A model generated the notes under the pieces. That model worked only from the letters and a program-made list of their open reading frames with translations. It was not told the origin of the DNA and did no database searches. From contig JBAQCK010000138.1 of NCBI GenBank assembly GCA_049294075.1, positions 38,361 to 102,360 of the forward strand: 64,000 bases of DNA, written 5' to 3'. Origin of the DNA: Bacteroidales bacterium (lineage in GTDB: Bacteria > Bacteroidota > Bacteroidia > Bacteroidales > VadinHA17). Below, piece after piece: positions 52,096 through 59,871 of the stretch; within the stretch, counting starts at the first letter, position 1; the number at the start of each line of letters is the position of its first letter. The translations under genes and the position numbers were made by a program.

Positions 52096-52565
52096 ATGAA
52101 AAGCAATCGTCGGGATTTTTTGAAGCATGCAACAGTGGCTGGCGCGGGAGCCTTTGCAGGAGGACTCCTTTCGCCCCCTTTGCAAATCTTAGTTATCGCG
52201 GAAACATGAACACTTCGCTGGTCAGAACAAACCCTGGAAAGACTATTCTGATACAGCACGACGTGTCTTCGGTTCGTCCCTGTTCCCGGCTCCATGTGAT
52301 TAGGGGAACATCAGGCGCGGCAAGCAAGTATCCAGGGCCCGAACGGATTGCGATGGGGCATGACTGGTTCAATGAGGAATAGATGAAGGATGTCACTGAG
52401 AAGTTCACTCCTGAAATAGTGAGAAGAATTGGCGAGATGGCAAAAAAGGCCGGAGGCCACGGAGGAATCGATTTCATCATGGACTGTGGAGGCTGATCGA
52501 TTGCCTTAGGAAAGGTCTGCCGCTCGATCAGGATGTTTACGACGGCGCATTGTGGAGTTCCGTTA
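52096..52565 (+). pseudogene. relic of a TAT-signal Gfo/Idh/MocA glycosidase-like (GH109-type) gene
   Basis: An intact TAT signal (MKSNRRDFLKHATVAGAGAFAG) runs directly into C-terminal-domain fragments in three frames: GKTILIQHDV...; AKKAGGHGGIDFIMD; WRLIDCLRKGLPLDQDVYDGALWSSV. The Rossmann domain and the extreme C-terminus are missing. Confidence 0.7.
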
Positions 52566-52612: not shown

Positions 52613-54604
52613 ATGAATATCGCGCTTTTTTTTACCGTTCTGATTCTCTCTTTTGCGCTTTTCCTGGTCCCTAAAATCCTGAAGCACAGTACCGCACTGT
52701 TTGTACTTGCAGCAGGCATTCTGGTAACCACAGGCTGGAGCTTTGAAGTGTTTGCGGGAAGAACCGGTGAACTAAGGCTGGAAACCGTTGTTCCCCTTAT
52801 TGGAAAGTCAGTCACTCTCATAATTGACAGGCTGTCGGCGTTTTTCATACTTGTGGTTAATATTACCCTTCTTGTCGGATTGATATACGCAAAAGGATAT
52901 CTGAAGCCATATTACCAGATCAGGAACTCCCTGCGCTTTTCAATACATTACTTTTCGTACCTGTGGCTTTATTTCTCAATGATCCTGGTGTTGATCACGC
53001 GCGACGGATTGTCCTTTCTGATAGTGTGGGAAATAATGGCGCTTTCGTCATTCATGCTGGTCATTTTCGATGCAGAGGACACCTCGATCATGAAAACCGG
53101 TATCAGCTATCTTATCCAGATGCATGTTGGCATGTTCTTCCTGATGTTTGCCTTTCTCATTCTTGACCGTGAAACGGGGGAAATGAGTTTTGATGCCCTG
53201 GGCGGCTACTTCAGGGATCATTCGAACCTGCTCCTTTTCATTCTGTTCTTCATGGGATTTGGCATCAAAGCCGGATTCATTCCGCTGCACACATGGCTTC
53301 CACAGGCACATCCGGCTGCCCCTTCGCACGTTTCGGGAGTGATGTCGGGAGTGATGATAAAGATGGGAATATATGGTATTATGAGAGTACTGCTCTATGT
53401 CAGTCAGGATCTTCTGCAGATCGGAATCCTGATCCTGATCGTATCGCTCATATCGGGGCTGCTTGGAGTGATGATGGCGATAGTGCAGCATGACCTGAAA
53501 AGGTTGCTGGCTTACCACAGCATCGAAAACATAGGGATAATTGGCATCGGCATCGGGCTGGGAGTAATCGGACTCGCTACCGGGAACAATGCGCTGAGTA
53601 TCCTGGGATTCAGCGGCGGATTGCTGCATGTGCTTAACCATTCCCTGTTTAAATCGCTCCTTTTTTTCAGTGCGGGATCCGTATACACCTCCACTCACAC
53701 CAGGAATATTGAAAAGATGGGAGGGCTGATGAAGCGAATGCCCTATACATCCGTGCTTTTTCTTATAGGGTCGCTTGCTATCTGCGGTCTGCCTCCCTTT
53801 AACGGATTCATTTCCGAATACCTTATTTACCTGGGTATGTTCAGAGACCTGCCGTCGGCGGGGATGCACGAGTCAATACTTGTGCTTGGATCAATTGTAG
53901 GCCTGTCACTCATCGGAGGCCTTGCCGTTTTCTGTTTTACAAAGGCATTCGGGATAGCTTTTCTCGGGGAACCACGCTCACAGCATTCAACATCAGCCAT
54001 TGAAGTTGAGAAGGTGATGATTTTCCCGCAATTTGTTTCAGTTGCCATGATAATACTCATCGGAGTGGCTTCGCCATGGTTTGTCAGGCCCGTTTTTGAA
54101 ATCGTCTCATCGGGATTCGGAATTGAAGGGATGCCCGCAGTAGCAAATTCAACATTACCGGGACTTTCAAAGATTAGTATCATTTCAGGAGTCTTCATTA
54201 TGCTTGTGCTTGCTTTGTCACTGTACAGGCAATTCCATCTTAAGTCGGTCAAAGTGAGCCGGGGTCCGACATGGGGTTGCGGCTACACTGCCCCGGATCC
54301 TAAACAGCAATACACTTCAACGTCTTTTGCATACAACTACAACCATCTGGCAAAACCGGTTATCGGGACAAAAAAAATGATGCCGGAGATAATGGAGGAA
54401 GAGATTTTCCCGGTGGAAAGAAGCTTCAGTTCGTTTAGTGACGATGTTTTCCGGAAAGTGTTAATTGACAAGCCAGCCGGTATGGTCTCTTCGCTTCTCA
54501 AGAAGATAGCCGTGATGCAGACCGGGAAGGTTCAGCACTACGTACTATACGCGTTTATTTTCATGCTCTTTGTGCTTTTGCTCACCTGGCTCAATATTAT
54601 CTGA
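52613..54604 (+). CDS. HyfB/NuoL-like antiporter-type membrane subunit
   Basis: About 16 TM segments and Mrp/NuoL family motifs (GFIPLHTWLPQAHPAAPSHVSG). Start set at MNIALFF rather than the upstream TTG. Confidence 0.85.
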   Translation: MNIALFFTVLILSFALFLVPKILKHSTALFVLAAGILVTTGWSFEVFAGRTGELRLETVVPLIGKSVTLIIDRLSAFFILVVNITLLVGLIYAKGYLKPYYQIRNSLRFSIHYFSYLWLYFSMILVLITRDGLSFLIVWEIMALSSFMLVIFDAEDTSIMKTGISYLIQMHVGMFFLMFAFLILDRETGEMSFDALGGYFRDHSNLLLFILFFMGFGIKAGFIPLHTWLPQAHPAAPSHVSGVMSGVMIKMGIYGIMRVLLYVSQDLLQIGILILIVSLISGLLGVMMAIVQHDLKRLLAYHSIENIGIIGIGIGLGVIGLATGNNALSILGFSGGLLHVLNHSLFKSLLFFSAGSVYTSTHTRNIEKMGGLMKRMPYTSVLFLIGSLAICGLPPFNGFISEYLIYLGMFRDLPSAGMHESILVLGSIVGLSLIGGLAVFCFTKAFGIAFLGEPRSQHSTSAIEVEKVMIFPQFVSVAMIILIGVASPWFVRPVFEIVSSGFGIEGMPAVANSTLPGLSKISIISGVFIMLVLALSLYRQFHLKSVKVSRGPTWGCGYTAPDPKQQYTSTSFAYNYNHLAKPVIGTKKMMPEIMEEEIFPVERSFSSFSDDVFRKVLIDKPAGMVSSLLKKIAVMQTGKVQHYVLYAFIFMLFVLLLTWLNII

Positions 54605-54605
54605 T

Positions 54606-55526
54606 ATGGCAGGACTGATAATGATATTGATATCGGCCATGTTCTTCCCGGGAATGATACTCCGGACCAGGAGCATCGCATCAGGGCGCAAGGGACCCGG
54701 TATCCTTCAGCCTTTGAGAGATGCCGGAGTCCTGGTAAGGAAAGGGAGCGTATTCAGCACGACGACGGGTATTATTTTCCAGGTTGCACCTGTGGTTTCG
54801 CTTTCTTCAGTCATCTGCGCGATACTGGTGGTGCCTTTTGGACATCAGGAGGCGCTTATTCACTTCGAAGGGGACTTTGTATTTTTTGCGTATATCCTGG
54901 CCCTGGGACGTTTTTTCATGATAATTGCCGCTCTCGACACAGGTAGCAGCTTTGAAGGAATGGGAGCAAGCCGCGAAGCCTTTTTTTCAATGCTTATCGA
55001 ACCCGCATTCTTTATCCTTATGGCTACCTTCTCGATGTTTACAGGACTCGTTTCCTTTTCGGATATCTTCAGCCATTTCTTCATTACCGGTAATCATTAT
55101 GTACTTATATTCAGCATTATAGGTTTTTATTTATTCATACAGACCGCTTTGATCGAAAACAGCCGGCTTCCTGTCGATGATCCCAAAACCCATCTGGAGC
55201 TGACAATGATTCATGAAGTGATGATCCTCGATTACAGCGGCTTCGACAAGGCGCTTATCCATATTACTACATGGCTCAAATTTGCTGCATACGGATCGCT
55301 CATGTATAATGTTATAGTGCCGGCGGGATGGAATATATTCCTTCAGATTGCACTCTTCATTGCCGTTCAGGCTTTGTTTGCGATTATTGTAGGATTTCTC
55401 GAATCATTCAGGGCAAGAAACAAGATGAACAAGAATCCCAAGTTCATATTAACGATTTCGGCAATTGCCCTTCTTGCCTTTGTGGTTATACTGATATTGA
55501 ACCTGAATATGAATAGTAATTTTTAG
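54606..55526 (+). CDS. HyfC/HycD/NuoH-like membrane subunit
   Basis: RTRSIASGRKGPGILQPLRD N-terminal loop and 8 TM segments. Confidence 0.8.
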   Translation: MAGLIMILISAMFFPGMILRTRSIASGRKGPGILQPLRDAGVLVRKGSVFSTTTGIIFQVAPVVSLSSVICAILVVPFGHQEALIHFEGDFVFFAYILALGRFFMIIAALDTGSSFEGMGASREAFFSMLIEPAFFILMATFSMFTGLVSFSDIFSHFFITGNHYVLIFSIIGFYLFIQTALIENSRLPVDDPKTHLELTMIHEVMILDYSGFDKALIHITTWLKFAAYGSLMYNVIVPAGWNIFLQIALFIAVQALFAIIVGFLESFRARNKMNKNPKFILTISAIALLAFVVILILNLNMNSNF

Positions 55527-55532
55527 CAAGCG

Positions 55533-56147
55533 ATGGAGATTTACCTTATAGTGTTATTTGCGATAACACTCGTATATTTTGCTTCAGCCGAACGACTGGT
55601 GACCTACATACGGCTCATCGGCATTCAGGGTCTGCTTTTGTGCGGGATCGCCATATTTGAACTTACCGAGGTGAACACCGTAAACCTGATATTCATTATT
55701 GCAGAGACTATCATAATAAAGGCAACAGTGATACCTTACCTTCTTAAACGCATCACAACGGAATCAGGTGTAACCAAAGTTCACAGGCAGGCAATGCCCG
55801 GATTTTATCTTATCATACTGTCGGTTACAGCCCTGCTGGCAAGCCTTATCCTTTCTTATTCGATGAAGAACCCGTATGTGAACGTGATTTACATGACGAT
55901 TGCACTGTTCAGCCTTTTTACAGGGCTACTGATGATTGTAACCCACAGGCTGATCATTTCCCATCTTACCGGCTTTCTTATAATTGAGAATGCTGTTTTC
56001 GTTTTTTCGATTGCTGTTGGAAATGAAATGCCGATGCTTATAAATATCGGAATTCTCCTTGATATTTTTGTCGGGGTTCTTATTCTTGGCTTTTTCGGAT
56101 TGCGCCTTAAACCCCACACCAACGAACTAACCCTGCTAAAGGACTGA
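55533..56147 (+). CDS. HyfE-like small membrane subunit
   Basis: 204 aa, about 6 TM segments, positioned between the NuoH-like and NuoM/N-like genes as in hyf operons. Confidence 0.65.
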   Translation: MEIYLIVLFAITLVYFASAERLVTYIRLIGIQGLLLCGIAIFELTEVNTVNLIFIIAETIIIKATVIPYLLKRITTESGVTKVHRQAMPGFYLIILSVTALLASLILSYSMKNPYVNVIYMTIALFSLFTGLLMIVTHRLIISHLTGFLIIENAVFVFSIAVGNEMPMLINIGILLDIFVGVLILGFFGLRLKPHTNELTLLKD

Positions 56148-56148
56148 C

Positions 56149-57573
56149 ATGCTGCTGTTGTTTTTTATAATATCTGTGCTTATATGTCTGTCGATGCTGC
56201 TCTTCAGAAGCAAAAACCTTACAAAAATCCTGATGGTGGGCTTCGCAATGATGCATATAGTGCTGAGCATCTACTCATTTACCAGACTCGGCAATACCGA
56301 GCTCCGATTTTTCACCTATACAGGGATAGGAGTTCTTCTTCTTTCGGTGCTTTCAATTCTGGCGGTTCCCGTTGTTTACCATGGATTTATATATACGGCC
56401 GGCGATGATACAAGGAAATTCAACATCTATCATGCTTCTCTGGTTGCCCTTATGACCTTTATGACCGGAGCTTACCTGGCAAACGGAATGACAGTGCTTT
56501 GGGCATTTGTGGAAGCAACCACTCTGGCTGTGGCATTATTGATTTATCACGACCGGACTCCGGCAGCTCTTGAAGCAACCTGGAAATATGTGTTTATCTG
56601 CTCAGCCGGAATTGCCCTTGCATACCTGGGGATTCTGTTCCTGGGATTTATCTACGGACGCGAGGATGCGGCCAGCCTTTCATTCTCATCACTTTCCACA
56701 ATAATCAACCAGGCAAATCCGATGTATCTAAGGATTGCCTTCCTGTTTGTTCTGACAGGCTTCAGCACGAAGATGGGTCTTTTCCCCATGCACACCGTTA
56801 CTATCGATGCCCATTCCGTTGCCCCTCCTCCAATTTCCGCCTTGATCTCCACCACTCTTATGAATGTGGGCTTTCTGGCGATTTTCAGGGTTTATTCCCT
56901 GTTCTCGTCTTCATCGGTTTTTCCGTTTATGAACAATGTGCTGATCTTAGCCGGACTGCTTTCAATCCTCGTCGCTTCAGGCTACATGCTTAAGGCCAAG
57001 CATCTGAAACGTATGCTGGCATATTCAAGCCTTGAGAATATGGGGTTGGTTGCAATAGCGATCGGAGTGGGAGGCATAGGGTACTATGCCGGAATATTGC
57101 TGCTTTTATTGCATTCTCTGGCTAAATCGAGCCTGTTTTTCCAGATGGGTCAGCTGTCGAGGGTGCTTCATACCTTTAAGCTGGACAATTGCGGCAGATA
57201 TATGGAACTGTATCCCGCCGGGGCGATGGTATTGCTCCTGGGAATGATCTGTATACTTGCGCTTCCGCCGTCGGGACTTTTTATTACTGAATTCCTGATC
57301 TTCAAGGGAATGGTTAGCAATGGCCAATGGGTTGTGATGATTACGGCTGTGGCGCTTTTATGCTTTGTGGTTTATGCAATGAGCACACGCTTCATGCATA
57401 TTTTATTCTCAAATCCGCGCGGTGATGCCGGACTTACGGAACCGGGTAAAGTAAACGGGATTGAGACGGTCAGCCAGTTTGTCCTTCTGGGTGTGGTGGT
57501 GCTTATGTGCTTTTATCAGCCCTCCTTCCTGTCGGAAATGATCTTTCAAAGCATCAGCCTATTGCCAAAATGA
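56149..57573 (+). CDS. HyfF/NuoM-N-like antiporter-type membrane subunit
   Basis: About 13 TM segments, with FSTKMGLFPMHTV and AYSSLENMG motifs. Confidence 0.8.
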   Translation: MLLLFFIISVLICLSMLLFRSKNLTKILMVGFAMMHIVLSIYSFTRLGNTELRFFTYTGIGVLLLSVLSILAVPVVYHGFIYTAGDDTRKFNIYHASLVALMTFMTGAYLANGMTVLWAFVEATTLAVALLIYHDRTPAALEATWKYVFICSAGIALAYLGILFLGFIYGREDAASLSFSSLSTIINQANPMYLRIAFLFVLTGFSTKMGLFPMHTVTIDAHSVAPPPISALISTTLMNVGFLAIFRVYSLFSSSSVFPFMNNVLILAGLLSILVASGYMLKAKHLKRMLAYSSLENMGLVAIAIGVGGIGYYAGILLLLLHSLAKSSLFFQMGQLSRVLHTFKLDNCGRYMELYPAGAMVLLLGMICILALPPSGLFITEFLIFKGMVSNGQWVVMITAVALLCFVVYAMSTRFMHILFSNPRGDAGLTEPGKVNGIETVSQFVLLGVVVLMCFYQPSFLSEMIFQSISLLPK

Positions 57574-57580
57574 GTAAATA

Positions 57581-59098
57581 ATGAACGAACTTTTCATAGA
57601 GATATCATCCAATCCGTTTACTGTCAGCATTGATATGATCCCGGTGCTGGAATATGAACTTTTCTGTGATCAGGCTGCCCTGATGCTTAAGGATGAATCG
57701 CAGCATTGTGTTGCCTATTATGCCGTGGAGACTCAAGGAAGCCTGAAGCTTATCTGCTGCATTGCAGATGACAGGGATCACAGTTTCAGGTTATTTTCTT
57801 CCATGCTTTCTGGCTGCAAAAGCACGGTAAGGTCACTGTCGAAGGAAGTCCCGCAGCTTCATGTATATGAACGCGAGATTCACGAGAATTACGGTGTTGT
57901 TTTTGAGGGGCATCCCTGGCTCAAGCCTGTGAGGTATCCTCACAACCGGGCATCAATGGCATCGGTTATGGACAACTATCCTTTTTACAGGATAGAAGGA
58001 GAGGAGCTTCATGAGGTTGGTGTCGGACCTGTACATGCCGGCGTGATAGAACCCGGACATTTCAGGTTCATCTGCAACGGCGAAAAGGTTCTGCATCTTG
58101 AAATACAGCTTGGTTACCAGCACAGGGGAGTGGAGCGTCTGCTGGCAGAAACCGGAAGCGGGATCAGGCGTTGTGTCCTGTGCGATAACATCGTGGGCGA
58201 TACCTCTGTCGGTTACGCACTTACATACGCCCGGGTAATTGAATCTCTGGCAGGTATCCAGCCCTCCAGGGCAATTCAGATTGAGCGTAACATCGGCCTG
58301 GAACTGGAAAGGATTGCTGTCCATATCGGCGATACGGCGGCATTGTGCGGTGATGTGGCATACCAGCTTGGTCAGGTTGTATGTGAGGCTCTGCGGACCG
58401 AAATAATAAACACCACACAGCTCTGGTGCGGCAACAGGTTTGGAAAAGGACTTGTTCGTCCGGGAGGCACAAATTATAAAATGACTTCCGAAGTTACTGA
58501 CAGGATACTTATTGTGCTTAAGGATGTTGGAGAAAGGTTTGCCACTATTTCCGACAGGATATATTCCCTTCAGAGTGTTCTGGCCCGGTTCGAGGATATT
58601 GGCCAGGTAACCCGGCAGCAGGCGCTTTTAACTGGCGCAGTAGGGATGGCAGCAAGGGCATGCGGAATCAGACGTGATATAAGATGGTCGCATCCTGACC
58701 AGTATTACCAGGATTGTTCTTTTGAGCCGGTGGTTCTCGAAACCGGGGATGTTCTTGCACGCGGGCTGCTCAGGGTTAAGGAAGTAAGTGAATCCATAAA
58801 CATTATCTCCCGACTTATAGCTGACCGGCAGAATCAGCAGGACGAGCTCTCCCTTCCTGATTACAATTGCAGTCTCAGGGCTGACAGTTTCGCACTGTCA
58901 CTTACAGAAGGCTGGAGAGGTGAGATATGCCATTCCGCAATCACTGACGGGAGCGGAAATATTGTTCATTACAAGGTAAAGGACCCGTCGTTCCATAACT
59001 GGATGGCTCTTGCTCTGGCGGTAAGAAACGAGGAGATTTCCGATTTTCCGGTCTGTAACAAGAGCTTTAACCTTAGTTACTGCGGGAATGATCTTTAG
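57581..59098 (+). CDS. fused NuoC-NuoD / HycE-like 'large subunit' lacking the canonical Ni-Fe cysteine motifs
   Basis: NuoC-like YEREIHENYGVVFEGHPWLKP. NuoD/HycE-like GPVHAGVIEPGHFRF and LGYQHRGVERL. The expected RxCGxCxxxH position reads NIVGDTSVGY, and the C-terminus reads NLSYCGNDL-stop instead of DPCxxCxxR. Confidence 0.8.
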   Translation: MNELFIEISSNPFTVSIDMIPVLEYELFCDQAALMLKDESQHCVAYYAVETQGSLKLICCIADDRDHSFRLFSSMLSGCKSTVRSLSKEVPQLHVYEREIHENYGVVFEGHPWLKPVRYPHNRASMASVMDNYPFYRIEGEELHEVGVGPVHAGVIEPGHFRFICNGEKVLHLEIQLGYQHRGVERLLAETGSGIRRCVLCDNIVGDTSVGYALTYARVIESLAGIQPSRAIQIERNIGLELERIAVHIGDTAALCGDVAYQLGQVVCEALRTEIINTTQLWCGNRFGKGLVRPGGTNYKMTSEVTDRILIVLKDVGERFATISDRIYSLQSVLARFEDIGQVTRQQALLTGAVGMAARACGIRRDIRWSHPDQYYQDCSFEPVVLETGDVLARGLLRVKEVSESINIISRLIADRQNQQDELSLPDYNCSLRADSFALSLTEGWRGEICHSAITDGSGNIVHYKVKDPSFHNWMALALAVRNEEISDFPVCNKSFNLSYCGNDL

Positions 59099-59115: not shown

Positions 59116-59871
59116 ATGTACAGGGAAATTAAAATATTAAAGCAGCATGGGATCCAGTATGTAAGGGACCTCCGGAATCAGCCGGTCTCTGACCTTTTCC
59201 GGGGAAGGCCGGTGATTTCAAGGGATATTACGGCCGCTGAAATCGAAAAGGTCAGTTCCCTTTGTCCGGCCGGCGCTATCGATAAGGTAAGCGGGTCAAT
59301 CGATCTGGGAAAATGTGTTTTTTGCAGAGAATGTGAATTCTGTCTGAAAGAAAAGATCCGTTTTACAAATGATTACCGGATAGCAGCCAGCAGGAGGGAG
59401 GATCTTGTAATCCGGCCGGGAACGGAGGCTCTGCTCAGGCTTGACGGGGAAGTAATAAGAAAGGAGATAAGGAAGATTTACAAGCGTTCGCTTAAGCTGA
59501 GGCAGGTATCTGCCGGTGGGGATAATTCGTGTGAGATGGAGCTCAATGCAACGGGCAATGTGAACTTCGACCTGGGGCGGTATGGGATTGAGTTTACAGC
59601 ATCGCCGCGTCATGCTGACGGGATAGTGATTACCGGACCTGTTTCAGCAAACATGGCTGCAGCACTACGACTAACATATGAAGCAGTGCCCGATCCGAAG
59701 GTGATCATCCTGGTTGGAACCGATGCGATCAGCGGAGGCATGTATGCCGGCTCACCTGCTGTTGAAAGGAGTTTTATCGAAGAACATCACATTGATCTTT
59801 ATGTTCCGGGCAACCCGGCCCATCCTTTGACTTTCATTAACGGGATTCTCGATCTTCTTGGAAAAAAATGA
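59116..59871 (+). CDS. NuoB/HycG-like 'small subunit' with N-terminal ferredoxin remnant and degenerate cluster ligands
   Basis: N-terminus has LCPAGAI...CVFCRECEFC. The NuoB core is RHADGIVITGP. The cluster motifs read GGDNSCEME, GTDAISGG and VPGNPAHP, so only 1 of 4 Cys is kept. Confidence 0.75.
   Translation: MYREIKILKQHGIQYVRDLRNQPVSDLFRGRPVISRDITAAEIEKVSSLCPAGAIDKVSGSIDLGKCVFCRECEFCLKEKIRFTNDYRIAASRREDLVIRPGTEALLRLDGEVIRKEIRKIYKRSLKLRQVSAGGDNSCEMELNATGNVNFDLGRYGIEFTASPRHADGIVITGPVSANMAAALRLTYEAVPDPKVIILVGTDAISGGMYAGSPAVERSFIEEHHIDLYVPGNPAHPLTFINGILDLLGKK

Follow-up and report, generated by a model that had tools for sequence, protein, structure and literature searches.

A probable Ehr operon

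Within the window, the 64,000-nucleotide stretch of Bacteroidales DNA analysed here, the open reading frame at 57581-59098 on the forward strand was confirmed; it starts with ATG and encodes 505 amino acids ending in Leu505. It is the fifth of six genes on the forward strand at ∼52.6-59.9 kb, which encode HyfB-, NuoH-, HyfE- and HyfF-like proteins, a NuoC-NuoD fusion and a NuoI-NuoB fusion. The reading frame very probably encodes EhrL, a NuoC-NuoD fusion that forms the “large subunit” of an energy-converting-hydrogenase-related (Ehr) complex, as part of a self-contained six-gene operon, ehrA-B-C-D-L-S.

EhrL is sub-divided into a NuoC-like domain (amino acids 32-120, nt 57674-57940) and a NuoD/HycE-like domain (amino acids 146-505, nt 58016-59095, followed by the stop codon at 59096-59098), which correspond to PF00329 and PF00346. 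The protein passes the Pfam domain models Complex1_49kDa and Complex1_30kDa, and falls far under the cutoff of all NCBIfam Nuo models, scoring 163 bits against NuoD where the cutoff is 360. The best HMMER sequence match among solved structures is MbhL (6cfw_L, E = 1.9e-34), and HycE (7z0s_E) is matched at E = 1e-29. The protein has the large-subunit fold: its top Foldseek match is HycE (7z0s_E, E = 3.8e-18, TM 0.72), with Escherichia coli NuoCD fitting almost as closely, and the second of two AF2 runs gave a model with a pLDDT of 85 and a pTM of 0.88. EhrL has at least 8000 homologues among the matches listed, with 4885 representatives at 50% identity.

Ehr complexes were first described in Geobacter (PMC3569383; PMC7894505). 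In the Ehr passages of the literature, they are defined by a group-4-hydrogenase-like large subunit without the Ni-Fe cysteines, and H2 metabolism is denied to them (PMC3569383; PMC4758237; PMC5037454; PMC7304191). EhrL corresponds to this definition, combining homology to group 4 hydrogenases with the absence of the Ni-Fe cysteines. The survey of Marreiros et al. in 2013 reportedly established Ehr as a widespread class.

Four membrane proteins are encoded ahead of EhrL, and their best NCBIfam matches are to Hyf B, C, E, and F rather than to NuoA/J/K/L/M/N. The HyfB/NuoL-type antiporter-like subunit EhrA (52613-54604; PF00361, E = 2e-55) has its likely ATG at 52613, giving 663 amino acids; the mechanically called reading frame starts at 52550, and the gene call in an 89%-identical locus (L081) is also 663 amino acids long. 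EhrA scores 549 bits against NCBIfam hydrogenase-4 subunit B, under the cutoff of 667, and its Glu161, Lys240, Lys271, and Lys368 are invariant across 46 loci. EhrB (54639-55526; PF00146, E = 2.6e-30) is a NuoH/HycD-type membrane anchor with a series of acidic residues that are at least 90% conserved (Glu129, Glu136, Glu144, Glu196, Asp203, Asp204, Glu210, Glu216, Asp221, and Glu278). The HyfE-like membrane subunit EhrC (55533-56147) is assigned from a match to the NCBIfam hydrogenase-4 membrane subunit (E = 5e-08, under the cutoff) and from its place in the ABCDLS order. EhrD (56194-57573; PF00361, E = 3.6e-41) is a HyfF/NuoN-type antiporter-like subunit, whose nearest solved relatives are MbsH and MbhH; Glu122, Lys208, and Lys326 are conserved, and the position of the TM8 lysine is held family-wide by Asn239.

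This architecture is the same as that of the Ehr set described in Supplementary Note 4 of PMC6349859, which comprises a NuoCD fusion, a NuoI-NuoB fusion, HyfB, HyfF, NuoH, and HyfE. The Ehr complex of Geobacter sulfurreducens (ehrA-1, A-2, B, C, D, L, S; GSU0739-45) shares the subunit set and gene order, although two ehrA genes are found in Geobacteraceae and one in the window. We compared 80 loci, a subset of the matching stretches (at least 592) found across species-representative genomes, and found the order ABCDLS in 34 and AABCDLS in 11, together at least 45 of the 80. Carriers of the operon include the cultured Ancylomarina sp. 16SWW S1-10-2 (L004) and, in the form of MAGs, Alistipes. 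Geomonas limicola (L046, 45% identity) and Geobacter sp. (L079) carry an identical gene order, and the Geobacteraceae large subunits are 42-45% identical to EhrL; the tree built for the family was an NJ tree of representatives. In the flanking genes scanned, no conserved redox-partner gene was found beside the Bacteroidota operons. Immediately ahead of ehrA, 650 bp of sequence represent a pseudogene remnant, and an Rfam scan of them for a riboswitch that could give a clue to the substrate or ion returned noise only.

The former Ni-Fe site of EhrL

All four Ni-Fe ligands are replaced in EhrL. Where group 4 [NiFe]-hydrogenases carry the L1 motif C-[GS]-[ILV]-C-x-x-x-H, HMMER alignments place Val205-Gly206-Asp207-Thr208 (58193-58204) on the C-G-I-C of Pyrococcus furiosus MbhL and E. 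coli HycE, and Tyr212 on the motif histidine. At the position of the L2 motif, D-P-C-x-x-C-x-x-[RH], EhrL reads N497-L-S499-Y-C-G502-N-D-L505, the greater part of which lies in the C-terminal motif C492-N-K-S-F-N497-L-S499-Y-C501-G502 (59054-59086). Ser499 aligns with HycE Cys531 and Tyr500 with Tyr532, and continuing the alignment without gaps brings Gly502 onto HycE Cys534 and Leu505, the last residue, onto Arg537. In HycE maturation, Arg537 becomes the terminal residue once HycI has cleaved the precursor, and the 32-residue C-terminal extension of HycE is absent from EhrL. When 114 representatives of the family, five true hydrogenases among them, were aligned with MAFFT, the CGxC and CYSC of these five fell in the matching columns. 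The original prediction had placed V-G-D-T...Y where C-G-x-C...H is expected, with serine and glycine at the L2 cysteine positions and no C-terminal maturation extension, and these alignments bear it out on each point.

Across the 114 representatives, the ligands have given way to a family-wide signature, [A/S/V/C]-G-D-[S/T] together with S-Y-x-G-x-D-L-stop, and in nearly all of them the final leucine is the end of the protein, with no residue beyond. Gly206 and Asp207 are here termed family-invariant, with Asp207 present in 79/79 loci, in 119/119 close homologues (sequences with at least 62% identity to EhrL), and in 102/114 representatives. Ser499, Tyr500, Gly502, Asp504, and Leu505 are invariant in the close homologues and almost so in the representatives.

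From these replacements, we infer that Ni-Fe binding by EhrL is impossible, that the protein neither produces nor uses H2, and that it has no need for Hyp/HycI maturation, a HycI step being excluded by the lack of a C-terminal extension. The loss of the Ni-Fe motifs is the defining and already published property of Ehr, which the original prediction missed. The finding in EhrL as such therefore matters little, and classifiers such as HydDB already filter Ehr out.

Among characterized relatives, E. coli HycE and HyfG (group 4a) are NuoC-NuoD fusions like EhrL and have Hyf-type membrane partners, and the “EPGHFR” β1-β2 loop is identical in HycE and EhrL. However, HycE Cys241, Cys244, Cys531, and Cys534 are all absent from EhrL, Asp529 is replaced by Asn497 and Ser283 by Val247, and the partner subunit of EhrL is without a proximal cluster. 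The MBS/Mbx complex of P. furiosus is also hydrogenase-derived and has also lost Ni-Fe binding, although two of the four ligand cysteines survive in its MbsL and none in EhrL. MBS has a three-cluster chain in which the 3-Cys proximal cluster is the proposed catalytic site, whereas the complex in the window has a medial-cluster motif only. MBH, like MBS, comes with a full Mrp module, in contrast to the Hyf-type subunits of Ehr.

Cysteines outside the ligand positions

The C198-V-L-C201 pair (58172-58183) lies within a helix predicted by AF2 (residues 194-202) that precedes the 203-208 loop, placing Cys198 and Cys201 seven and four residues upstream of position 205. Every alignment anchors on the invariant Gly206, and CVLC as a shifted L1 motif is for that reason rejected; it was rightly taken as non-canonical and upstream of L1, since no alignment puts it there. 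The pair is lineage-specific and unconserved as a motif. Cys198 occurs in 107 of the 119 close homologues and Cys201 in 22 (serine in 80, alanine in 15), and in distant members among the 114 representatives position 198 is Leu/Val/Ile and position 201 is alanine, with Met/Ala in MbhL. Because Cys201 is so infrequent and distant members carry hydrophobic residues at both positions, the expectation that the displaced cysteines would be conserved in orthologues fails for CVLC. With 17 cysteines in the 505 residues of EhrL, 0.57 CxxC pairs (502 × 0.0337^2, ∼0.6) are expected by chance, so that the occurrence of one is not improbable. CVLC is best read as a coincidence in a Cys-rich protein, neither a relic nor a ligand.

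Four further cysteines were assessed by a position-by-position comparison with hydrogenases and by their conservation patterns. Cys165, which the AF2 model places at the end of strand β2 that adjoins an N-G turn and points away from the β1-β2 loop, is present in 79/79 loci, which span more than 10 phyla, and in 119/119 close homologues. Cys283, Cys492, and Cys501 are invariant in the 119 close homologues, present in most of the 79 loci and common across phyla. Each can be replaced on its own in lineages that retain the rest: Cys492 in 13/79 loci (asparagine in 12 and serine in 1), Cys501 in 9/79 (serine or alanine), and Cys283 in 18/79 (glycine, serine, or threonine). A branch at 33-40% identity has V/T/I/S at the Cys165, Cys283, Cys492, and Cys501 columns (Ile/Val in the Cys492 column and Ser/Ala in the Cys501 column), yet keeps GD[ST] and SYxGxDL. 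The same four columns are filled by V/L, T/S, I/A, and S when the protein is a true hydrogenase. Across phyla, Cys165 (in every locus), Cys501, Cys492, and Cys283 are kept more strongly than plain packing needs.

It could be argued that Cys165, Cys283, Cys492, and Cys501, perhaps with Cys198, have come to make up a novel metal or Fe-S site that replaces the Ni-Fe center and is catalytic or electron-accepting. Such a site would fit the invariance of Cys165 and the presence of the other three in most loci, the location of Cys501, flanked by what used to be the two L2 ligand positions, and the loss of the proximal cluster in Bacteroidota, where a substitute cofactor would be welcome. The single replacement of individual cysteines and the packing residues found in the hydrogenase columns nevertheless make a new site unlikely, and it is further disfavored by the branch that has replaced all four cysteines while keeping the family signature, by the placement of Cys165 away from the β1-β2 loop, and by the lack of conservation of CVLC. 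In addition, MBS offers a precedent for conserved, non-catalytic cysteines in a vestigial site (PMC8165549). We consider the probability of a new site to be low, and core-packing substitutions to be the better description of the four residues. Of the suggestion that the displaced cysteines might be relics or ligands of a different site, the first half thus falls for Cys492 and Cys501, whose positions were never Ni-Fe ligands, both halves fall for CVLC, and the second half is left with the small likelihood just given.

EhrS and its Fe-S clusters

The ehrS gene (59116-59871, forward strand) encodes a fusion of a NuoI-like half-ferredoxin with a NuoB/HycG-like domain, recognized by PF01058 (E = 1.2e-19) and by alignments to MbhJ and HycG. 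EhrS has one ferredoxin motif, C50-P with C67xxC70xxC73 (nt 59263-59334). The positions of the proximal ligands are occupied by Asp136 (59521), Cys139 (59530), Asp203 (59722), and Asn233 (59812), and with three of the four being D, D, and N, the four cysteines of a proximal [4Fe-4S] cluster are not present. The distal ferredoxin cluster is also lost, leaving only the medial [4Fe-4S] motif.

When the proximal positions were compared across 70 loci, 41 were CCCC and 28 of the D-C-D-N type, the latter all from Bacteroidota. Within these 28, Asp136, Asp203, and Asn233 are conserved in 24-26. The medial cysteines of the ferredoxin domain are kept in 68-69 of the 70 loci, and so also where the proximal cluster has been lost. 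Members of the CCCC clade retain a wire of two or three clusters; in Geobacteraceae, and in most lineages other than Bacteroidota, EhrS has the four proximal cysteines and often a second ferredoxin cluster, unlike the D-C-D-N and single motif in the window. The charges of the antiporter-like subunits (TM5 Glu, TM7/TM12 Lys) are intact in both clades.

With the proximal ligands and the distal cluster gone from EhrS, the chain of three clusters that normally leads to the L-subunit cavity appears to be interrupted. This state of EhrS is a more unusual feature than the motif loss in EhrL, and no report of electron-wire loss in Bacteroidota Ehr was found among the abstracts and Ehr passages covered here. 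The near-invariant medial-cluster cysteines might mean that some redox role persists. It is also possible that Asp136, Asp203, and Asn233 do more than fill the space of the lost cluster and could bind a metal or another ion; no clade-specific compensating residue was found, such as a new lysine or arginine paired with Asp136 or Asp203.

Proton relay, quinone site and the relation to complex I

The β1-β2 loop of EhrL (amino acids 149-160, 58025-58060), placed by alignments to 7z0s_E and 7q5y_B, carries Ile156 and Glu157, each present in 79/79 loci. Glu157 aligns with HycE Glu193, the proton-exchange glutamate (PMC9474812), and the other relay positions retained are His248 (HycE His284), Arg359 (Arg395), Glu401 (Glu437), and Arg446 (canopy Arg478). 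Asn497 takes the place of the canopy aspartate (HycE Asp529), with asparagine in 73/79 loci and aspartate in 4/79. The quinone ligands of complex I are His38 and Tyr87 in Thermus thermophilus Nqo4 (PMC4758237), and in the alignment to Aquifex aeolicus NuoCD (7q5y_B) the complex I quinone histidine and tyrosine become Ile156 and Gly206, so that EhrL lacks both quinone-site residues.

Could EhrL still belong, as NuoCD, to a small complex I that reduces menaquinone in the L/S/B cavity with electrons from ferredoxin? Complex I NuoD/NuoCD (Nqo4, NDUFS2) has also lost the four Ni-Fe cysteines and shares the fold and proton relay of EhrL. The Pfam matches, the proximity of the fold to E. coli NuoCD, the retained relay residues, and a C terminus that ends like that of NuoD (..DR in complex I, ..DL at the matching position in EhrL) are all compatible with this proposal, as is the two- or three-cluster wire kept by members of the CCCC clade. 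Against it stand the NuoD score well short of the NCBIfam cutoff, the residues at the quinone-ligand positions, and asparagine at the canopy aspartate, which is described as strictly conserved in complex I. Three of the four ligands of the tandem-Cys N2 cluster are absent in the window, and the membrane subunits are Hyf-type and not Nuo-type. The absence of the quinone ligands and of N2 leads us to reject a canonical complex I, and a small complex I of the kind outlined is improbable.

Selection and possible function

The six genes of the operon are intact and under purifying selection, with dN/dS values of 0.04-0.21 at dS 0.21-0.44. A decaying hydrogenase operon, or functionless pseudogene in progress, would account for the seemingly stepwise loss of the Ni-Fe ligands and of the proximal and distal clusters, for the real pseudogene remnant next door, and for EhrL having the highest dN/dS of the six (0.21), but it is rejected on the dN/dS values and is scarcely credible given six intact reading frames, at least 8000 homologues, the invariant Asp207, Ser499, Tyr500, Gly502, Asp504, and Leu505, and an operon order kept across phyla.

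Since no Ehr complex has been characterized biochemically, every functional statement here is inferential; for Ehr, PMC7894505 states in its passage on the complex that the “physiological role ... never investigated”. We tentatively propose that EhrL carries out no redox catalysis and would act as a proton-relay and coupling cap, seated together with EhrS on EhrB, and that this cap may gate or stabilize an Mrp-like cation/proton translocator made up of EhrA, EhrC, and EhrD. By extension, Bacteroidota Ehr might be a redox-independent ion translocator in which the peripheral arm inherited from hydrogenases serves for coupling or gating, and Asp136/Asp203/Asn233 could then form a new ion site, a view that we regard as possible though doubtful. 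The Mrp antiporter resembles Ehr in having PF00361 subunits with a conserved TM5 Glu and TM7/TM12 Lys, while it differs in having no peripheral arm, Ehr having kept both its conserved L/S cap and an anchor of the NuoH type. Mrp would be the most plausible functional analogue should the electron wire really be interrupted.

The Bacteroidota Ehr complex is abundant, conserved, and selected, and its redox wire is apparently cut on either side of one remaining cluster. A version of Ehr that is unable to pass electrons to the old cavity would make it testable whether the peripheral arm of complex-I-type machines is useful without redox chemistry. If the redox-independent reading is true, the complex would be a natural experiment in which what the complex-I Q-module does mechanically is set apart from what it does as a redox device.

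In NCBI, EhrL is labelled “NADH-quinone oxidoreductase subunit C”, and homologues of the Geomonas EhrL recovered by sequence search bear names such as “hydrogenase large subunit”; the cluster-member names for ten distant EhrL representatives were uninformative. The practical value of the present assignment lies in annotation, as neither “NADH-quinone oxidoreductase subunit C” nor “Ni,Fe-hydrogenase III large subunit” is a correct name for the thousands of Bacteroidales genes that bear one or the other.

EhrL and the ehr operon

The open reading frame at 57581-59098 (+ strand) encodes a protein of 505 amino acids, the same as that quoted in the original prediction, with a Pfam NuoC-like domain (aa 32-120) and a NuoD-like domain. 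All NCBIfam NuoD models score far under their cutoff (163 versus 360 bits). Among solved structures, P. furiosus MbhL is nearest in sequence (6cfw_L, E = 1.9e-34), followed by E. coli HycE (7z0s_E, E = 1e-29) and then by the NuoD/NuoCD chains of complex I. An AlphaFold2 model from a second run (pLDDT 85, pTM 0.88) has the HycE/NuoCD fold, and a Foldseek search with the first model returned 7z0s_E as best match (E = 3.8e-18, TM 0.72).

Alignment to the solved structures places V205-G-D-T208 on the C-G-I-C of MbhL and HycE (L1, the N-terminal Ni-Fe ligand motif) and Y212 on the motif His. At the C-terminal ligand motif (L2), S499 aligns with HycE Cys531 and Y500 with Tyr532 (7z0s_E), and ungapped continuation of the alignment pairs G502 with Cys534 and the terminal L505 with Arg537, the last HycE residue remaining after HycI cleavage. 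The original description, with both motifs replaced, no C-terminal extension and a CVLC pair upstream of L1, is borne out throughout by the MbhL and HycE alignments. Across 114 full-length EhrL-family representatives (33-53% identity), the L1 position reads [A/S/C/V]-G-D-[S/T] (G in 107, D in 102) and the L2 position S-Y-[C/S/A]-G-x-D-L (S 101, Y 99, G 104, D 110), and nearly all stop at the final Leu. As nearly all end there, lack of an extension is normal for the Ehr (energy-converting-hydrogenase-related) family; it is normally absent also from NuoD and some group-4 hydrogenases. Five representatives (P0229, P0231, P0244, P0254, P0267) carry CGxC and CYSC in the L1 and L2 columns, likewise without an extension, and group together within the Cys-less members in a rough neighbor-joining tree, consistent with PMC3569383, in which the EhrL of D. 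ruminis is reported to retain the four Cys.

The protein is EhrL, the large subunit of an Ehr complex. It is under selection and unable to ligate Ni-Fe, and we infer that it performs no H2 chemistry and requires neither Hyp proteins nor HycI. Its replaced motifs are a known hallmark of Ehr, and the gene belongs to an already known family. Geobacter is where Ehr complexes were first recognised (PMC3569383, PMC7894505), and HydDB is trained to leave them out, since these homologues “do not metabolize H2” (PMC5037454).

The EhrL gene is the fifth of six closely packed genes that form an operon on the + strand: HyfB-like ehrA (52613-54604), NuoH/HycD-like ehrB (54639-55526), HyfE-like ehrC (55533-56147), HyfF-like ehrD (56194-57573), the NuoCD fusion ehrL (57581-59098) and ehrS (59116-59871), a NuoI-like half-ferredoxin fused to a NuoB/HycG-like domain. 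This subunit set matches the Ehr description in PMC6349859 (Supplementary Note 4), with a NuoCD fusion, a NuoI-NuoB fusion, HyfB, HyfF, NuoH and HyfE. Gene calls of 663, 295 and 459 aa in the homologous operon of a related genome (L081) give ATG starts at 52613, 54639 and 56194 for ehrA, ehrB and ehrD; the longest-ORF starts at 52550 (ehrA, TTG), 54570 (ehrB, TTG) and 56149 (ehrD) are probably too far upstream.

The former active-site cavity

Residues discussed in the structure paper on FHL (PMC9474812) were placed on EhrL through the HycE alignment. E157 corresponds to HycE Glu193, the proton-exchange Glu of the β1-β2 loop (PMC9474812), while H248, R359 and E401 correspond to His284, Arg395 and Glu437, and R446 to the canopy Arg478. 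E157, E401 and R446 are each present in 79/79 genome loci, H248 in 76 and R359 in 74. The canopy Asp529, described as strictly conserved in hydrogenases and complex I (PMC9474812), is N497 in EhrL (N in 73/79 loci), canopy Ser283 is V247, and the quinone ligand positions of complex I are I156 and G206; the adjoining D207 is an invariant Asp gained in the cavity. Since these five relay residues are retained, with the Ni-Fe Cys and quinone ligands replaced, the cavity has lost its metal and quinone ligands and kept a proton-relay skeleton.

Cluster ligands of EhrS

In the small subunit EhrS, the four Cys positions of the proximal [4Fe-4S] cluster, aligned to MbhJ and HycG, are D136 (nt 59521), C139 (59530), D203 (59722) and N233 (59812). 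These positions read C-C-C-C in 41 of 70 loci, comprising essentially all non-Bacteroidota and two labelled Bacteroidota/Bacteroidetes, and D-C-D-N or close variants in 28, every one Bacteroidota. The D, D and N are conserved in 24-26 of these 28, and at the position of the one remaining Cys V, A, T, I, H or D also occur. The medial-cluster motif of the N-terminal ferredoxin-like domain (C50-P and C67xxC70xxC73) is kept in 68-69/70 loci. A distal-cluster motif (CxxCxxxCP with the final CP) occurs in 22/40 CCCC-type EhrS versus 1/29 of those without the proximal cluster; the EhrS of the window lacks it. Judged by its residues, the Ehr complex of the window has ligands for the medial cluster only and none for the proximal. 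Bacteroidota EhrS with single-cluster ligands and no proximal set is the more unusual part of the system; it lies outside 57581-59098 and is worth carrying forward.

Selection, membrane subunits and a proposed working

Compared with the L081 operon (EhrL 89% identical), dN/dS is 0.11 for ehrA, 0.04 for ehrB, 0.07 for ehrC, 0.10 for ehrD, 0.21 for ehrL and 0.10 for ehrS, at dS of 0.21-0.44; by these measures the six-gene operon is functional. EhrA retains E161, K240, K271 and K368, EhrD retains E122, K208 and K326, and EhrB retains a series of acidic residues. The charged residues of EhrA and EhrD are conserved both in the CCCC clade and in the clade without the proximal cluster, and the TM5 Glu and the TM7 and TM12 Lys of EhrD are essentially invariant (E122 in 30/32 CCCC-clade loci). 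The central TM8 Lys, present in the aligned antiporter-like MbhH, MbsH and chloroplast NdhD, is replaced family-wide in EhrD by Asn (N239; 24/25 and 23/32 loci in the two clades).

In CCCC-type Ehr, ferredoxin presumably supplies electrons that pass along two or three clusters and reach an acceptor in the L/S/B cavity; in the Bacteroidota type, the electron wire appears to be broken on both sides of the medial cluster. There, EhrL and EhrS may sit on an Mrp-like cation/proton translocator as its proton relay and as a cap without redox function. This hypothesis is the most economical reading of the sequences and is put forward tentatively, as one that may well prove wrong. Alternatively, a cofactor of an unrecognised kind may sit at D136/D203/N233 or at Cys positions, or a detachable redox partner may serve the Bacteroidota complex.

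Distribution and gene neighborhood

Scanning one genome per species gave at least 600 matching stretches, at least 592 of them encoding a relative, and gene order and distribution were compared in the 80 best loci of these 592 or more. The 80 span Bacteroidota, Spirochaetota, Victivallales, Melainabacteria, Desulfobacterota, Planctomycetota, Verrucomicrobiota, Fibrobacteres and Omnitrophota, and include Geomonas limicola (45% identity) and a Geobacter sp. The order ABCDLS is found in 34/80 and AABCDLS in 11/80, Geomonas among the latter, in agreement with G. sulfurreducens, whose cluster spans seven locus tags (GSU0739-45) and includes an ehrA-1 label. One locus (L006) has the rearranged order L-A-B-C-D-S, another (L072) apparently has two L-S pairs, and in three (L014, L019, L067) the ehr ORFs are fragmented, probably by assembly frameshifts.

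Bacteroidota ehr operons have no gene for a redox partner at their flanks. In the window, the operon is flanked by murB and yceG upstream and by gamma-glutamyltranspeptidase and GH38 mannosidase genes downstream. A pseudogene between murB and ehrA (52096-52564) is a GFO_IDH_MocA/GH109-like remnant with a twin-arginine signal (MKSNRRDFLK...), matching aa 1-26 and 309-439 of an intact 498-aa gene (L081:2373-3869); the remnant carries two internal deletions as well as frame changes. Within 3 kb upstream of ehrA, 12 CCCC-clade loci carry a gene fusing an HTH_17 DNA-binding domain to PTS EIIA-2 (PtsN-like), on the same strand as ehrA in 11 and abutting it in one (L032:1350-2024); this gene is absent from Bacteroidota ehr operons. 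Its product may be a regulator tying Ehr to the nitrogen-PTS or ion homeostasis.

Cysteines of EhrL

The interpretation in the original prediction is partly supported: motif replacement holds, and CVLC, for which it weighed a relic against a ligand of a different site, is neither. C198 and C201, seven and four residues before the L1 position, correspond to M and A in MbhL, and a CxxC is unsurprising given a chance expectation of ~0.57 with 17 Cys in 505 residues. C201 is kept in only 22 of 119 homologues of at least 62% identity (S in 80, A in 15) and C198 in 107, and both positions hold ordinary hydrophobic or small residues in 79 species loci and the 114 representatives. As these columns never held ligands, the pair is neither relic nor motif. 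Lack of conservation in orthologues, which the original prediction named as refuting its reading, thus applies to this pair.

Conservation, which failed for C201, does hold for C492 (“PVC”) and C501 (“SYC”), invariant with C43, C165 and C283 in the 119 close homologues; C165 is also invariant in 79 loci of many phyla, where C501, C492 and C283 each persist in about 77-89%. That these Cys form a new site is nevertheless very improbable. Each of three is lost singly while the others stay: C492 (N in 12, S in 1 of 79 loci, Geomonas included), C501 (S/A in 9/79) and C283 (G/S/T in 18/79). In a more distant branch of Ehr, the C165, C283, C492 and C501 positions hold V, T, I/V and S/A while GD[ST] and SYxGxDL are retained, and true hydrogenases carry typical packing residues in these columns (V/L, T/S, I/A, S). 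The AlphaFold2 model puts C492 within a short helix (486-495), C283 at the end of helix 261-283, and C165 at the end of strand β2 beside the N166-G167 turn, the predicted hairpin end opposite the β1-β2 loop that reaches the cavity. All four lines speak against these Cys acting together as ligands. MBS offers a precedent for conserved Cys without a catalytic role: two persist at what is left of its Ni-Fe site, “although ... not involved in catalysis” (PMC8165549).

Bacteroidales proteins have additional Cys at C43, C59, C60, C256, C268 and C450, several of them conserved: C43 in 119/119, C256 in 116/119 and C450 in 116/119 close homologues, with V/L, A or S in other phyla. These extra Cys are not strictly coupled to loss of the proximal cluster, as Alistipes and Rikenellaceae loci are mostly without C43.
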